Virus record (IMG/VR): IMGVR_UViG_3300043395_003277
Span: 21,450-85,449 of that record
DNA from: a virus
Length of the DNA: 64,000 nucleotides
Reading direction: 5' to 3' (one strand)
Shown here: piece by piece, positions 2,712-56,739 of the stretch
How the letters are laid out: each line of letters opens with the position of its first letter
How positions within the stretch are numbered: position 1 is the stretch's first letter
Notes under the pieces: model-generated
What the model was told of the DNA's origin: nothing
Databases searched by the model: none
What the model saw: the letters and a program-made list of their open reading frames with translations, nothing else
Program-made: the position numbers and the translations under genes

Positions 2712-3650
2712 ATGGACATTACTCTTCAGCTGACATCTGATCAATCTCTGATCTATAACCGCACCAACATCAGACGTGCATATGAAGGATTTGATGACAC
2801 CGAAATCGCTGGGATTTTTGTGCGAGATGATGATTGTCTCGTGGTGCGTCGCGATGGTACTGAGCAAAGTTATGACAGGCAATTGATAAGAAATGCTTAT
2901 GTCTCTTATACACATCGCCTTAAAGACTTTTTTGCTTACCTAGGTCCAAACTATAGGGGTCCTAGTATTTGGCACAACAATGCCTATGTCCTTTTCAAAG
3001 GATGGAACTACACCCATGTCCTCGGACACACAACCCCTAACGCTAAGCTCCAAGCAAACTGGGCAGACAAATTTATCCACCTCTCAGACCCCAATAAACT
3101 TGTCACGTTACTACAGTCTGACCAAACGGACCTGGGCTATTTGGTGGCACCAGACGGGATGCGGCTTCCGGATCGGCCGCTTGATATGGACTCTTCACTG
3201 GATTACAGCCAAGAACAAAAGCCGATGTTTGGCGAACCTTACTGCTCGTGTGGGTCGTTTCAGCGTCAGCTCGGTGCTATACAAACTCTCCAAGAAGAAA
3301 TCCAGGGATATAAGCCGTGGTGTATCCACCTGACTTGGTTCAATAAATACCGTGAGCTTCTGTGCAAACGCACTGAAGTACGTAATGCTGCGCCCTCTGG
3401 AACACCAGATAAATGTGTAGCTTGGTTTTATGCACCTCCAGCAGATCATATCAGTGATGGTCGCTTTGTGCTTTTGCATACCAAACAAGGTGCTCAAGCC
3501 CCGCTCAGTCACTGGCGTACCTACAAATCTAAAGAAGTCCTGACGCAACATGATGCGTGGGATCTTTTCTTTAATATGCTTGAGGCCGGTTACGTTCCAT
3601 TCCCTGGTACCGCACTGCCTCAATTAAAACCAGCACTTAAGAAACAATGA
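2712..3650 (+). CDS. SWIM zinc-finger protein
   Basis: YCSCGSF...WCIH (CxC...CxH). Confidence 0.65.
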   Translation: MDITLQLTSDQSLIYNRTNIRRAYEGFDDTEIAGIFVRDDDCLVVRRDGTEQSYDRQLIRNAYVSYTHRLKDFFAYLGPNYRGPSIWHNNAYVLFKGWNYTHVLGHTTPNAKLQANWADKFIHLSDPNKLVTLLQSDQTDLGYLVAPDGMRLPDRPLDMDSSLDYSQEQKPMFGEPYCSCGSFQRQLGAIQTLQEEIQGYKPWCIHLTWFNKYRELLCKRTEVRNAAPSGTPDKCVAWFYAPPADHISDGRFVLLHTKQGAQAPLSHWRTYKSKEVLTQHDAWDLFFNMLEAGYVPFPGTALPQLKPALKKQ

Positions 3651-4081
3651 CAACAACTCAAGAAATGCTTGAGTATACAAAAACAAATGCTTGGTGCACC
3701 AATGAATAACACGCAAACCAAAACTAAAATGATTCGTTATGACTTAGAAGTTCCAGAAGAGTTCCATTGGAAACTTGTAGCATTAGGTGCTAAGCAAAAA
3801 CTTCATTACGAAGATTATGCTGAACGCGTACTTCAAGAGTTTGCCGTTAAAGCCACTCAAAAAATCAACGATGATTTCAAACAATCCATCATTAACCAGT
3901 TGGGTCAGCAAGTTAAAACTCCAAGTAATGGAGGACAATCCTGACGGCAGCTGTGACATCCACATCGAATGGGATGAAACAGATCCAGATCTTGCTCTGT
4001 GGAATTCATGGGGTGAAGAAGGACAGAAGCAATTTGTCCTTGATGCATTAAAAAACGCTTGCAACCACGCTCTTTCAACCG

Positions 4082-4465
4082 ATGACAATTGATGCTTACC
4101 AACTGCCAGAAGAGCAGTACACAAAGTTCTTTGAGAAGAACGCACGTCTTGCCTGTCAGCTTTATCTAAAGCTGCACAACATTGCAACAATTGAAGGTGT
4201 TGGCAACATTGATTTCCGCACCTTAATGGAGCTTTATAACGATTGCATCTATGCATCGAATGAAGATTGCCGTCAGTACCAAAAACAACATGATCCAGAA
4301 GTTGTTGCTAAACAACAAGAAGATCTGTTTATTTATGGATCGCCATCTAGGGAAGAGATGATGGAAGAAATTAAATCTATCAATGCCAAAGTTGAATCTA
4401 TAGTTGATTACATCACAGGACTAACAGATACATTAAAGACAGGATTTACTAAAATTCAATCCTGA
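4082..4465 (+). CDS. Hypothetical protein
   Basis: 127-aa ORF in the early operon. Confidence 0.55.
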   Translation: MTIDAYQLPEEQYTKFFEKNARLACQLYLKLHNIATIEGVGNIDFRTLMELYNDCIYASNEDCRQYQKQHDPEVVAKQQEDLFIYGSPSREEMMEEIKSINAKVESIVDYITGLTDTLKTGFTKIQS

Positions 4466-14167: not shown

Positions 14168-14629
14168 TGTTTTGTTTGCGTTCTTCTAATAGTTTAAGAT
14201 ACTTACATGGTTTTGCAGACTTAGCCCAATCTCTGGGAGGGTTTGGCATGATCCTTTCCAGCTCCCAGAAATAACGCTCTAGTCTTTCGGCTTCGCTGGG
14301 AAGTTTAAACTTCTTTTCCTTGCGTTGCTTTGCCAAACTTTTGCATAATCTCATCCATGCACTCTAGAGACTCCAGGCGCATCAAGATGTCTGTGATGGT
14401 GGAGATCGTGATTGGATGTTCAGCCCGCGCTGCAAACGCCAGGGCATCACGCAAATTAGCACTTGCTTGATCAATGGCATCTTTGACTTGATTAGATAAA
14501 GACATCTGGGATTGTTTGGGTGCTTTAAGTATAAAAGAAAGTGTTTCCATGGCGACTATCCCGTACGTATTAATTATCAATCAAAGATAAAAATAATACG
14601 TACGGAATATACAACCTAGGGTGTACGGT

Positions 14630-34753: not shown

Positions 34754-35305
34754 ATGAAAGTCAAATCACTTCCGTCTTTTGAGGTATTATCGGAACATTT
34801 TGAACTTGCTGGTAACGATGTTGTATGGAAAAAGAACTATTTTAAAGCACGTGTCGGGAAGCGTGCAGGGTACAAACGGTCCGATGGATATGTTGAAATT
34901 AAATTTCAACATCAAAAAATGCTAGCCCATCGAGTTGCGTATGTTTTACATAACAAAAAAGATCCTGGCGACTTTTTTATTGACCATATAGACAACAATC
35001 CGTCAAACAACAATCCAGATAATTTAAGGATTGCAACGCACTGTCAAAATCTTGTTAATTCAAGAAGACTAAGACGCAATAATACATCGGGCAAGCACGG
35101 TGTCAATAAAGCTATTGTTAATGGAATTGAATATTGGAAAGCGACAATCAGCATTGAAAACAAAAACTATTTTATTGGAGCATATGCAACAAAAGAGGCG
35201 GCAATTGCCGCCCGTGAAGTTGCCGAAAAATTCGCTTATGGAGAATTTTCACCACTAACGGCCTTGCCCGCGCCACGGCTTTTTCCCCTTGCGCCTGGGT
35301 CTTGA
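34754..35305 (+). CDS. HNH-AP2 homing endonuclease
   Basis: AHRVAY, IDHIDNNPSNN.PDNLR, NTSGKHGV..WKATI...IGAY.TKEAA. Confidence 0.9.
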   Translation: MKVKSLPSFEVLSEHFELAGNDVVWKKNYFKARVGKRAGYKRSDGYVEIKFQHQKMLAHRVAYVLHNKKDPGDFFIDHIDNNPSNNNPDNLRIATHCQNLVNSRRLRRNNTSGKHGVNKAIVNGIEYWKATISIENKNYFIGAYATKEAAIAAREVAEKFAYGEFSPLTALPAPRLFPLAPGS

Positions 35306-51914: not shown

Positions 51915-53353
51915 TCAGACAGTACCGTCATCTTGGACGTAGCTGTAAGCAGTGGTAACAAAGTCCTTATTGAGGATTTCAAAACCAGCGTACAGTTGCC
52001 AAATCAGAATGATAAAGCGGCTGAAGTCATCGTTGTTGTTGATGAGCACCTGAGCGTTCGGGCCGCCGATGCCAACGCCAACAGACTGAGGACCGAAGAA
52101 GAAGCCTTGGGCAACTTCCTTGGAAGCATAAGTCGAACCACCATCGAAAGAAGTGGTGATGTTCTTGGTCGGGAAGTTGGTCGACTCGAAGAACTTAACG
52201 CCTTCAAACTGAACGCCGGTAGGCATCACAGGTTCGCCAGCCAGGAAGTAACCTTGACCAGCCTGAGGACCCATGTAGAAGCTGGCATTGTTCGGCATCA
52301 TGGGGTTGCCCATGTACATGCCTTGGCCAGGGTTACCAGCGTAACGGGCGATCTCACGGAAGTCTGGGTCACGACGCAGGTGCATCATGAAGGTGGGATC
52401 GCAAATGCAGCGATACAGGCCATCAGCGAACGTAGGGGTGTTGCGCTTACGCAGATCCTTAACAACGTTCAGAAGGTCGGTACGCACCGAGAACTGCTGC
52501 AGGTCGGCAGTGTACTCAGTACCGGTGTAGGAGATACGACCGGAAGAATCCTTGGTTTTGCCACCGGGGAAGAAGTAGCCACCTTGGGTGGTAGAAGCAG
52601 CACCATTGGCTTCTGCTTTGGCGAGTTCATCAATGAACACGCGGTCACGCCAACGGCGGTAGTCGTCAAGCAGCGTCAGGCTACCAATCGACTGGTGGAA
52701 CATATTCAGGTTGCCCGAATCCAGCAGCAGACGCTGAGCTGTGATCAGAGTTTCGCGAGCAATCTTGAAGGTGCTGGGCTGGGTCGGATCGCCCGGATCT
52801 GCAGGACCGGTGTATTCCTTAAGCACCACCAGGACCTTTTCCTTGGTGATGTTACGGCTGTTAGCGGTACCAATCGTTTGATCGGCAATACGCTCACGGC
52901 TGTCCTTAGTACCAGGGGTACCCCAGAACTTATAGCGATCTAACTGAACGGTTTGACCGGGCTGACGGGTGAAGTCGTGGACAACCACAGGCTCCACAGC
53001 CATTTCGGCAATGTAAGCAGGATGGGGACGATAGAGTTCCGCACCCAAGATTTTTGGAAAATCGTTCTCCTGGTCTCTAGTTTCTTAGAGGGGTGGACTA
53101 TCTCTTCATCCCTGTGGGATGCCGGACGCTAAATCTGGTATTACGTAACAAGATCGTGTTACCCCCAGTAGTCTCTGCACCTTCCAATCACGACTTGATT
53201 GGCTTGGCTCAGGATTACCCTCGTCTTTACGTTAGGGCTTCCCTGAATTCATCCGGTTTGCACCCATCAATTACTCGATGGGGTGACAACGTTGAGCGTT
53301 CAGTTGAAGCAATTTATTGCTTACCAGGACCTGAACCAGCTATCAATAAACAC
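51915..53353 (-). CDS. Major capsid protein, spliced join(53353..53342,53066..51915), 387 aa
   Basis: GGAGG RBS, GTG TTT ATT GAT exon 1, in-frame AAC GAT TTT CCA exon 2 (MFIDNDFPKILGAELYRPHP); strong codon bias; lies after portal and scaffold. Confidence 0.85.
53067..53341 (-). ncRNA. Group I self-splicing intron, ORF-less, 275 nt
   Basis: P AAUUCAGGGAA, Q AAUCCUGAGC, R GUGCAGAGACUA, S AAGAGAUAGUCC; P3 CCGGAUG/CGUCCGG; IGS CGUUGUCA pairs exon UGAU (U-G) and AACG; terminal G. Confidence 0.93.
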
Positions 53354-53450
53354 CTTGGTTTATCCTCCAGTGTCAGTGTTTTTATCGGGTGAAAGATAAA
53401 GACACGTGTGCCTTATCTAACACAAATTTTAGCAGGTAGTAAACTTAAAG

Positions 53451-54011
53451 TTACATGTACTGCATGGTTGGTGCTTTGTAACGAGCACCTTCTGAATTGC
53501 TGGAACCATAAGATTCTGGATCAATGGCACCACCTTGAACGAAACCAGGCACACCGAGAGCGCCAGGAATCGCACCAAGGGCAACACCACCTAAACCAGC
53601 TGCGCCAGCGGCAGCAGGTGCGCCGAGGCCAGCAGTGAGCCTAGATACCAATTGCTGACCTTTCGGACCAACAGTGGCACCCTCAGCTGCCGCAATAATA
53701 TCGGCAGCTTTACCAACAATTTGACTGCGCTTATTCGCGCCTTCTGGCAGATTGCGGCCAATGTCGCCAACAATGTTGCCGAGTGGAATAACAGCTTTTT
53801 CTTGCACTGCATTCAGTAATTCTGGGGCATATTTACCAGCCAGACGACCAGCACCTAATGCACCTCGTGCACCAAGAGCAGCACCTAAGCCGCCAAGGAT
53901 TGCACTACCTGGATCTTCACCCTGTGCAGAAAGAGCCCCGCCAACTGCCAGACCGGCAGCGGCGGGAACTCCGTATGCAATCAGAGGACGAGTTTGTCCT
54001 AATGGTCGCAT
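53451..54011 (-). CDS. Gly/Ala-rich membrane-like protein
   Basis: Several GxxxG hydrophobic segments. Confidence 0.55.
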   Translation of the reverse strand: MRPLGQTRPLIAYGVPAAAGLAVGGALSAQGEDPGSAILGGLGAALGARGALGAGRLAGKYAPELLNAVQEKAVIPLGNIVGDIGRNLPEGANKRSQIVGKAADIIAAAEGATVGPKGQQLVSRLTAGLGAPAAAGAAGLGGVALGAIPGALGVPGFVQGGAIDPESYGSSNSEGARYKAPTMQYM

Positions 54012-54992: not shown

Positions 54993-56739
54993 AACTCATC
55001 TCCTTTTGTAGAGCTTCTAATGTTCGATACAGATATGGCGTTAAATCCAATCTTGGATCCGCAGCCATCGGTAAATCCGGGGCTTGCGGGTGAGGAGTCT
55101 GCATCATTCCCCCCACTAGTTTTGAGAATGCAGCGTAAGCACCCTGCAACTCATTCACCATCCTGAACGGGAACCCAGATAGCATCTCGGCCCGTTCCTC
55201 ATCCGTCTTAGACGGGAAGAGGTATTTCAGTGCTTCAATGCTATCAACACCTAATTCCTGAAGATTTCGCACGACAATGGAGTTGTTCAGGATGTCTTGA
55301 GTTGATTCCTCATAGACAGGACCCAACCAACGCCAAAGAACCGTGACATCACCATCAGGTATAAGACCCATTACTCCAGGTGGAATTACCTGGGTCTCAA
55401 TACAAGCAAGCATAAGCCTTTTTAAGATGTCATTGTATTGTTTCATTGCTTCTTTATATGCCTGCTCTTCTTCCGGGGTGGCACCAGTAGCAAGATCAAC
55501 TGGTTTCTCGATACCTGCTGCAGCTGCAAGCGTCGACTTGAAAAGCTGTTCTTCTTGATAAATAATCAGTTCAAGACAACGGCAAATACCATGAGTGTAA
55601 ATAGCATTTGCTTTTTTCTTTGATGTTGCAGCAACACGACCGAACAGAGACTTGTACTCTGTTGCGGTAACGCCAGCAGAAATTGATAACTCATCAACAC
55701 CGCCTAATGCGGTACGAATTTCTTCTCGGTACTGACGAGCGAATGCATTCTGGTCTCCAGTAATTGCATCTGGGACGATGTAACCAACACGATCGTTAGG
55801 CTCCAGGTTTGCAATGATGCGTGGCACACGGATAGCACCATCAACGCCACGACTGACTGGATCAGCCTTAAACATGGAACGGCTTAAGGGTGACGGACTC
55901 GTGAAGCCCGAGTTTGCTGCAATAGAAGGACGCTGAACTGTTGCACTATCACCTGACTCCATCAGGTCTGTCTTTGGCCTGGAAGAAAGAAGAGTTGGAT
56001 TACCAAAGAAAGTAATATTCTTTCGAATAGTACGCATTAATTCATCATGGGTGCAAATGTGATTCGCCATGGAATCAAATTCGCCAACGCCTTCGGTTGA
56101 GAACCCCTTGGGATTATTAAAAATTTCAACGCAAGGAATAAAACCAAGACTGTTTTTAAATGTTTTTGTTGTACCCGTTAATGCATAGGTGGGAACATCA
56201 AAAGAAAGCTCGGCTTCAGAGTGCGTTTCTTCAATCTCCCTTTGTTTAATTGCAAGCCTGATATAGCGTTTTGCTCCGGGATTCCAAGTTGATTGAGTGC
56301 CTGAAATATTGTTAACAGCAATATCATTGCCAAAGCCGTTACCACGACGCACCTTGTAGCTGTAAATGATTACAACTTCATCCAGCTCACCATCAACGTT
56401 GTAATACGCTCGATATTCGTGTTGACGGAAATAGTAAAGTCGGTAGCTCTGTTCAGTAGGACGAATATAAAACAACCCTTTTCCATCGCACAGGAAATAC
56501 TCCCAGATTGAATCCAGGCGTGTATCCATTTTGTTGTATTTCAGCACACGATCAAGAAAATCTTTGCGTTGTGCACCGAAATTGTCTTGAGAAGGAAAAA
56601 ATTCAACACCCTGTCGGATGCCAAATAACTTCATCTGAGCAATATGAGACGCTACAACGCCAGTGTCGACAACAATGTCACTATCTTTTTCAAGATAAGA
56701 ATTAATGATTTCTTGAAGACGAGCCTTGGCGTCAGCCAT
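54442..56739 (-). CDS. Portal protein
   Basis: Position between terminase and scaffold; NSLGFIPCVEI.N, GVGEFD, SAGVTATE, V.WRW.GPV. Confidence 0.7.
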   Translation of the reverse strand: MADAKARLQEIINSYLEKDSDIVVDTGVVASHIAQMKLFGIRQGVEFFPSQDNFGAQRKDFLDRVLKYNKMDTRLDSIWEYFLCDGKGLFYIRPTEQSYRLYYFRQHEYRAYYNVDGELDEVVIIYSYKVRRGNGFGNDIAVNNISGTQSTWNPGAKRYIRLAIKQREIEETHSEAELSFDVPTYALTGTTKTFKNSLGFIPCVEIFNNPKGFSTEGVGEFDSMANHICTHDELMRTIRKNITFFGNPTLLSSRPKTDLMESGDSATVQRPSIAANSGFTSPSPLSRSMFKADPVSRGVDGAIRVPRIIANLEPNDRVGYIVPDAITGDQNAFARQYREEIRTALGGVDELSISAGVTATEYKSLFGRVAATSKKKANAIYTHGICRCLELIIYQEEQLFKSTLAAAAGIEKPVDLATGATPEEEQAYKEAMKQYNDILKRLMLACIETQVIPPGVMGLIPDGDVTVLWRWLGPVYEESTQDILNNSIVVRNLQELGVDSIEALKYLFPSKTDEERAEMLSGFPFRMVNELQGAYAAFSKLVGGMMQTPHPQAPDLPMAADPRLDLTPYLYRTLEALQKEMSYAGRYRPIDPTDEPNSGSGGSKQLRGSEPQLPSSPGPTGSSSVPGGYQLPAGGSSGGPQLPIRPYSVRPPVPTGSSEQQPMGIGVQQSGEPAERTSSIPVPDSTVSSDDPVRSGQLRAAVQQPSYATIGSADLVSQPDILAQLFPNFLQSLLGAGGASSGAKPQPGKPVRNQRVRPGSARNPK

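Follow-up and report, generated by a model that had tools for sequence, protein, structure and literature searches.

An IA2-like group I intron in the major head protein gene of a freshwater cyanophage, in forms with and without an antisense HNH gene

Introns in phage capsid genes are already known. The major capsid gene of the mycobacteriophage LittleE contains an 819-bp intron whose splicing was shown by reverse transcription PCR and N-terminal sequencing, and the same account cites an intron in the capsid gene of the lactococcal phage Tuc2009 (PMC3706429). Among cyanophages, introns have been reported in Pf-WMP3's gene for DNA polymerase (PMC3428280) and in psbA of S-PM2 (cited in PMC3706429), and in jumbo gut phages small group I introns number in the thousands, some of them in terL; about half of these thousands have support from metatranscriptome reads (PMC12880540). 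A paper on a group I intron database leaves phage, capsid and antisense orientation unmentioned (PMC11835236), and a full-text literature search, outside which the original S-EIV1 paper fell, returned no paper describing an intron in a capsid gene of the S-EIV1 type. Here we describe such an intron in IMGVR_UViG_3300043395_003277, an 85,449-bp viral genome with direct terminal repeats that is rated 100% complete and belongs to an S-EIV1-like freshwater cyanophage. All coordinates are positions in the window, the 64-kb stretch of this genome that was analysed, in which the capsid gene and the intron lie on the minus strand. Very probably, the major head protein gene is split by a 275-nt IA2-like group I intron that represents the form of a mobile intron lacking an open reading frame (ORF) and that is spliced out; catalysis, splicing in vivo and homing we infer from comparative evidence. 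An intron in a capsid gene would not as such surprise a specialist. The particular features of this one are its insertion four codons into the gene, a long P1 extension that can host an antisense HNH gene, and a rich natural polymorphism.

As in LittleE, the intron interrupts the major capsid gene, follows an exon 1 that ends in U, ends in G itself and is present in only some members of its phage group. The LittleE intron, of about 820 bp and with a homing endonuclease ORF on the bottom strand, also resembles the long alleles of the present intron that are described below, and an ORF-less relative of it, 265 bp in length, sits in a tail gene. The two differ in the endonuclease, which is LAGLIDADG-like in LittleE and of the HNH type here, and in the phage, LittleE being an actinobacterial siphovirus whose authors called the intron 'most likely group I'. 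They also differ in position, only four codons into the gene in the cyanophage, and in the grounds for splicing, which was experimentally shown in LittleE and is here deduced (PMC3706429).

Pf-WMP3 is likewise a freshwater cyanophage, and its intron, like ours, is classed with IA2 by its P7.1/P7.2 elements and a G-U-A sequence, has a 4-bp P10 and is associated with an HNH-family endonuclease, I-PfoP3I. On the other hand, its host is a DNA-metabolism gene and not a structural one, it has no P2, which is present here, and its ORF lies on the sense strand and spans P6a–P7.2, whereas that of our long alleles is antisense and lies in the P1 extension (PMC3428280). By DNA, the nearest phage introns are those of Vibrio phage terminase large-subunit genes, of Klebsiella and Escherichia jumbo phages, of Bacillus phage DNA polymerase genes, of Staphylococcus phages and of psbA in the Synechococcus phage S-CBWM1; these occupy other host genes and other insertion sites. 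The present locus adds an intron in a structural gene beside the S-CBWM1 psbA, S-PM2 psbA and Pf-WMP3 DNA polymerase introns of cyanophages.

The assignment of the split gene to the major capsid protein is well supported by family membership and by position. The window's protein matches phrog_1357, annotated as 'major head protein', in the PHROGs collection (E 2.7e-16). The same family is matched by 34 of 40 diverse homologues, and whichever PHROG family a homologue matched, four in all, it was one of major head proteins. Pfam searches of these 40 homologues found Phage_capsid_2 in five, Phage_capsid_3 in two and P22_CoatProtein in one. Upstream of the capsid gene lies the gene for a 765-residue protein of phrog_20475 (virion structural protein, with a weak portal match), and between the two stand a 186-residue ORF and a Gln/Pro-rich 325-residue ORF without a family hit, which we read as scaffold-like from its position and composition.

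Intron-less relatives locate the insertion. Scanning IMG/VR with the protein as guide gave at least 596 relatives of the capsid gene, and the analysed set comprises the 80 most similar to the window's protein. Sixty-six of these 80 are intron-less at this exact junction, running from GTG TTY MTT GAY directly into AAY/ACC GAY TTY CC (L063 and L064 start with ATG in place of GTG), and several, for example L033, L036, L037, L040 and L045, spell the ligated junction ATTGATAACGAT. In 14 of the 80 the intron's 3' end (...ACCAGGAG) abuts exon 2. The Shine-Dalgarno sequence is present at all 66 intron-less loci (as GGAGAAT in L063 and L064) and at all eight intron-bearing loci with a visible exon 1. 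The sole relative among 50,697 phage records is S-EIVl, a freshwater Synechococcus phage from a high-arctic lake, with 85.6% amino-acid identity over exon 2. Its locus holds an uninterrupted 383-codon ORF with a GTG start and, across a spacer, an upstream GGAGGAT motif, reading MFIDTDFPKILGAELYRPHP; its capsid protein begins MFIDTDFPK, and an Rfam search of the S-EIVl locus gave no match even at E<=1.

The insertion is in phase 0, after codon 4. Alignment by itself leaves the boundary ambiguous by 1 nt because an A stands at either edge. Under group I rules a U precedes the 5' splice site and the intron's final base is a G, which sets the intron at 53341–53067. The elements named by the first-pass annotation (GGAGG, GTG TTT ATT GAT, an interval of 275 nt and AAC GAT TTT CCA) were all found in place on the minus strand, and its prediction of intron-less orthologues starting MFIDNDFPK was borne out by proteins starting MFID(T/N)DFPK and by loci spelling the junction that it foresaw. 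A pattern search of IMG/VR for the junction of intron and exon 2, which fixes the intron's 3' end, returned at least 118 contigs; among those listed, 94 have both exons in reach and 24 do not have exon 1 in reach. Allele frequencies in the 80-locus and 118-locus sets are not population estimates, because the loci were picked by protein similarity or by the 3'-end pattern. The genome being a metagenome-assembled viral contig, the 275 nt could in principle have been wrongly joined into the capsid gene during assembly, but the same junction in at least 118 contigs from many metagenomes, and also in contigs from independent sequencing runs, leaves an artefact of this kind with practically no probability.

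The exon-2 frame is closed upstream by a TAA at 53087–53085, and its first conventional start is a TTG at 53048, at which the longest conventional ORF of the window's capsid gene begins. A real ribozyme could therefore coexist with capsid translation that starts in exon 2, at this TTG or at the ATG of Met22, to give a shortened but functional head protein for which exon 1 would be irrelevant. Such a start would agree with six public protein clusters (P0038, P0046, P0052, P0058, P0062 and P0129) that begin at an internal Met (MAVEP..., exon-2 residue 22), but several of these run into frameshifted tails and look like fragments, and all six probably reflect gene calls that are truncated or in error. 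Between the stop at 53087–53085 and the TTG there is no start codon, nor does a Shine-Dalgarno sequence lie 5–10 nt from it, the nearest AGGAG ending 18 nt upstream. NDFPKI and the residues beyond are moreover kept in frame throughout the 80 relatives, as well as in homologues of 37–50% identity, and exon 1 with its ribosome-binding site is conserved at the eight intron-bearing loci where it is visible, so that an internal start appears very unlikely. The distant homologues (37–50% identity) start with MFNETDFP, MFIDEIFP or MTFIDNQFP, and a library-wide search repeatedly set residue 1 of the window's exon 2 against residue 5 of proteins of full length. Exon 1, with its four codons, therefore represents the real N-terminus of the protein family.

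The intervening sequence matches the Rfam group I model RF00028 at 53359–53074 on the minus strand with 92.5 bits (gathering score 50; E 1.8e-22), over model positions 1–253 of 253, so that the model scan proposed in the first-pass annotation gave a full-length match. This is the only Rfam hit in the window and, by Rfam, the single group I intron in the whole genome. The minimum free energy (MFE) fold has a z of -2.84, and none of 200 shuffles folds as well. The Rfam alignment and the MFE fold served to assign the helices by hand (Table 1), and those proposed from the letters alone, namely P1, P10, P2 with its GUAA loop, P3–P9, an extra hairpin between P7 and P3' and the terminal G at 53067, were reproduced. 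The intron ends follow group I rules, with a U53342.G wobble in P1, an omega-G at 53067 and the P10 pairing AACG/CGUU. P10 pairs and omega-G occur in 57 of 57 alleles and P1 pairs in 10 of 10 distinct short-allele rows, all of them invariant. The guide sequence lies 50 nt into the intron, which is unusual, because P1 is extended by P1a and by the capping hairpin P1b.

Natural variation among alleles preserves these pairings. The helix test set, alignment A2, comprises 57 distinct alleles over the part from the guide sequence into exon 2, and as controls the 3' partners were slid by 1–3 columns and 500 shuffles were drawn. Across the 68 proposed pairs, 98.3% of 3,872 cells hold a standard pair, against 27–42% with slid partners. 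Both sides change in 16 pairs, compared with 2–4 with slid partners and a shuffle mean of 7.7, and none of the 500 shuffles reaches 16. These compensatory changes are located in P2, P6, P6a, P7, the P7.1/P7.2 element, P8 and P9; P5 is invariant or changes on one side only. In P7, for example, U-A is replaced by C-G in 7 of the 57 alleles, and in the inner stem of P7.1/P7.2 five of six pairs change on both sides. The outer stem of the same element is swapped from CUGG/CCAG to GGCG/CGCC in four alleles, which were scored as unpaired because an indel misaligns them. Three pairs of P1b change on both sides among the 10 distinct short alleles.

A published criterion for subgroup IA2 is the presence of 'helical elements P7.1 and P7.2 linked by a G-U-A sequence' (PMC3428280). 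At 53168–53135 the intron has two stacked stems, each with swapped pairs, and a conserved GUA directly 3' of the 3' strand of the inner stem; the GUAAUA linker as a whole is conserved in 57 of 57 rows, indel-shifted in four. The nearest phage DNA relatives are 71–79% identical over the catalytic core, and the best hits cover intron nt ~67–267, including the P7.1/P7.2 region; coverage of at least 80% of the intron was reached by none of 167 phage DNA records. Because of the P7.1/P7.2-GUA structure and because phage introns are its nearest relatives by DNA, we read the intron as an IA2-like phage intron, an assignment that follows from structure and the one cited criterion, the Rfam model being generic. 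The first-pass annotation had instead likened the core to the IC3 introns of cyanobacterial tRNA-Leu(UAA), which resemble it in small size, the GNRA loop of P2, a GAAA-type L9 and the absence of P5abc. Introns of the IC3 (tRNA-Leu) type are not known to have a P7.1/P7.2 insertion. The covarying P7.1/P7.2 between P7 and P3', a mark of the IA type, sets the window's intron apart from them and speaks against the IC3 assignment, by criterion and without direct comparison to a tRNA-Leu intron.

Table 1. Features of the split capsid gene and its intron (window coordinates)
Feature	Position	Strand	Remarks
Shine-Dalgarno GGAGG	53364..53368	-	10 nt 5' of GTG start
Exon 1, GTG TTT ATT GAT (M-F-I-D)	53342..53353	-	3'-terminal U is the P1 U.G wobble partner
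Intron, 275 nt, ORF-less, IA2-like group I	53067..53341	-	A53341 to omega-G53067; from Rfam and intron-less alleles
P1 extension: P1a GUUCAG/CUGAAC with capping hairpin P1b (53322-53307)	53298..53336	-	P1b covaries
Internal guide sequence CGUU-GUCA	53284..53291	-	GUCA pairs with exon-1 UGAU (P1); CGUU pairs with exon-2 AACG (P10)
P2 hairpin, GUAA (GNRA) loop	53263..53282	-	5 of 8 pairs change on both sides
P3 5' strand, J3/4, P4-P5, P6-P6a	53179..53256	-	Rfam alignment; compensatory: P6 1 pair, P6a 2
P7 5' strand G-A(bulge)-GACUA	53169..53175	-	Pairs with 53100-53095; P3/P7 pseudoknot
P7.1/P7.2, CUGG-GG-GUAACA-loop-UGUUAC-GUA-AUA-CCAG	53135..53168	-	Between P7 and P3'
P3 3' strand, P8, J8/7 (AAGAGA), P7 3' strand (UAGUCC)	53095..53128	-	Rfam alignment and A2
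P9.0 and P9 (GAAA-containing loop), then A and omega-G	53069..53092	-	P9: 1 compensatory pair
Exon 2, 383 codons and stop, begins AAC GAT TTT CCA	51915..53066	-	In frame of long ORF

Transcripts were sought in four public runs as assembled Logan contigs, not raw reads, over 52700–53600; depth, ends and strand are unreadable in such contigs, and uncovered parts of the region were left uninterpreted. Two metatranscriptome runs, from different studies (X5, polyA; X8, cDNA), each have a single contig in which 53065 is joined to 53341 and exactly 275 nt are skipped, with the expected 1-nt ambiguity at the junction. On the exon-1 side, the joined contig of X5 (2,562 nt) is identical to the window over 30 nt. 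The window's haplotype of 29-nt 5' untranslated region and exon 1 occurs at five of the eight intron-bearing loci with a visible exon 1 and at none of the 66 intron-less loci; a spliced transcript is therefore the more likely source of the X5 joined contig. The same runs also hold contigs of the long allele with 560 extra letters between 53311 and 53322, and X1, probably a DNA run, holds both intron-less and intron forms. A ribozyme structure conserved across many alleles in an essential gene of a lytic phage speaks more strongly for efficient splicing than the RNA contigs do. As a separate observation, a long-allele contig of X5 (record 10) ends exactly at the last intron base, 53067, while the joined contig of that run has exon 2. 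Contigs cannot show ends, and branching of the assembly graph could account for the observation, as could an RNA species that ends at the 3' splice site.

The ORF-less form is the minority among the complete alleles listed. Of the 94 complete introns among the matches listed, 83 measure 821–827 nt and 11 measure 271–277 nt, like that of the window. Within the P1 extension, most intron-bearing relatives depart from the window's sequence. The long introns of the best-80 relatives measure 825–826 nt, and an antisense ORF of ~181–193 residues, within an insert of ~550 nt on the strand opposite to the capsid gene, replaces the window's P1b hairpin. In Pfam the ORF hits HNH_3 at 39.8 bits, where the cut-off is 24.8 (E 3.4e-10), with C-terminal matches to the helix-turn-helix (HTH) families HTH_38 and HTH_23 below their cut-offs. 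It is intact, at 180 residues or more, in 82 of the 83 long alleles listed and exists in 54 protein variants, and is therefore under selection. Presumably it is the homing endonuclease of the long alleles and would cleave intron-less capsid alleles. Its closing codons (..YQDLN, stop) are complementary to the bases with which the intron opens and to the 5' strand of P1a, and the AGCTAG with which the intron starts in 87 of the 94 alleles listed provides both the antisense stop codon and a sense stop after exon 1 (MFIDS-stop). The description 'ORF-less' given in the first-pass annotation thus holds for the window's allele and fails for most alleles of the same intron, which carry the antisense HNH gene.

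In a maximum-likelihood tree of the shared core (94 rows, rough bootstraps), 12 short alleles need nine changes of ORF state, at least five of which well-supported branches make unavoidable; in one instance a short and a long allele share the same core. The ORF has therefore repeatedly been lost, gained or recombined away. Elsewhere in the window's own genome, only distant HNH matches were found (E 1.8e-4 to 6e-4; G000:C1:13496-13627, 14215-14460 and 56425-56685, the last equivalent to window 34976-35236), so that the window's intron is without a cognate endonuclease. One of these three distant matches has an internal TAG.

Several results weigh against a spliced head protein gene at this locus. 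The joined RNA contigs are supportive and not proof, because intron-less phages are common and a possible source of them, and the X5 joined contig differs from the window at 27 of 289 exon-2 positions. In the RNA run X9, record 21 shows the long form contiguous with exon 2, as unspliced RNA or DNA. P1, P1a, P10, P3, P4 and P9.0 have no both-side changes, their support being complementarity only. As for the protein, Pfam gave no family for the window's capsid protein, nor for any of the five capsid, scaffold-like, portal-like and neighbouring proteins searched; phmmer against PDB sequences returned only cytochrome c4 at a non-significant E of 0.27, and a profile of the 40 homologues gave four PDB hits, none significant, three of which are capsid proteins (E 0.22–0.95).

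The window's allele has moreover lost the endonuclease gene, a loss that, according to what Goddard and Burt reportedly proposed, precedes intron degeneration in the classical homing cycle. This would suit a decaying, splicing-defective relic in a defective genome whose capsid gene is effectively a pseudogene. Such decay is hardly credible, however, in an intron whose core helices are all intact, whose core is 98% identical to long-allele cores and whose P1b is kept by compensatory changes among short alleles. The genome is also complete with terminal repeats, exon 2 retains its intact 383-codon frame, and short alleles recur as 11 of the 94 independent complete copies listed. The reading put forward by the first-pass annotation, a capsid gene split after codon 4 that needs splicing, is supported by the Rfam match, the intron-less orthologues, the covariation and the head-protein family, and remains the one we favour.

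In this favoured reading, the pre-mRNA would present the ribosome-binding site, the start codon and four codons (MFID), followed by the ribozyme. P1 would form between exon-1 UGAU together with intron AGC and the guide sequence at 53291–53284, and exogenous guanosine would attack after U53342; P10 (AACG/CGUU) would then align exon 2, and the exons would be ligated after omega-G53067. The spliced mRNA is predicted to read MFID followed directly by NDFPKILGAELYRPHP..., for a product of 387 residues. Unspliced RNA of the window reads MFIDSWFRSW-stop in the sense frame; translation of it would stop there, and the full-length capsid protein therefore depends on splicing. During co-infection, the HNH and HTH endonuclease of the long alleles would cut intron-less capsid alleles and so bring about homing, and the window's copy, without a cognate endonuclease, would move only in trans or be inherited vertically.

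Splicing might additionally gate the synthesis of capsid protein, as a kinetic or conditional switch responding to guanosine triphosphate, Mg2+ or host state that would time the most abundant virion protein. The 5' splice site, only 12 nt past the start codon, falls inside the part of the mRNA that an initiating ribosome would be expected to cover. Formation of P1 and initiation of translation would therefore exclude one another on one RNA, and if the gate were true, antisense HNH transcription in the long alleles would form a second control layer. Such a regulatory role nevertheless seems improbable to us. A possible contributor to a splicing switch of this kind is a further pairing. UCCUGG in the P1 extension (53329–53324) is perfectly complementary to CCAGGA (53073–53068) just before omega-G, a pairing that also appears in the MFE fold. 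Neither strand varies in any of the alleles covered, with no covariation; the 3' strand is partly fixed by the search pattern, and the UCCUGG strand in long alleles also encodes the C-terminus of the HNH protein.

The locus offers a natural population snapshot of a homing cycle at one site in an essential late gene, with three kinds of allele, intron-less, intron with intact antisense HNH gene and ORF-less intron, in hundreds of independent environmental copies. It also bears on annotation. Gene callers plausibly truncate the intron-bearing capsid gene, and among the S-EIV1-like cyanophages, with their at least 596 capsid-gene relatives in IMG/VR, the head-protein gene is plausibly mis-called in every intron-bearing genome. 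This would also affect marker surveys based on the capsid gene and primers placed across its start. Mis-calling extends to the intron-less gene of S-EIVl, whose GenBank record (L001, KJ410740.1 60784-62010, locus 2911-4137) shows a 762-nt coding sequence on the opposite strand (2911-3672) and one of 471 nt (3667-4137), both 'hypothetical', in place of the intact 383-codon capsid ORF at 2986-4137 with its GTG start and GGAGG ribosome-binding site.

A 99-codon ORF with a GTG start at window 53093-53392 on the plus strand spans the whole intron and exon 1, and this antisense frame is open in other alleles too. Most likely this is a chance reading frame that conservation of the ribozyme keeps open, and a trap for gene callers. 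A promoter and terminator scan of 52900-53700 gave no promoter-like site and one terminator-like site, where 0.7 were expected. About 25 nt upstream of the capsid ribosome-binding site, at window 53394-53418 on the minus strand, stands an imperfect inverted repeat, AGATAAGGCACAC / GTGTCTTTATCT, and S-EIVl has a similar one in the same place (L001 2908-2935); a hairpin there, between the capsid gene and the gene upstream of it, could act in processing or as a terminator or operator.

Intron-less alleles also vary at the junction itself. In L009, L052, L053 and L075 exon 1 ends in GAC and not GAT, and in other intron-less alleles the first codon of exon 2 is ACC or AAT. GAC would swap the U.G wobble of P1 for C-G, and ACC or AAT would weaken P10; alleles of these kinds may resist the intron or its endonuclease. 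Apart from this difference, L052 and L053 have the upstream haplotype of the window.

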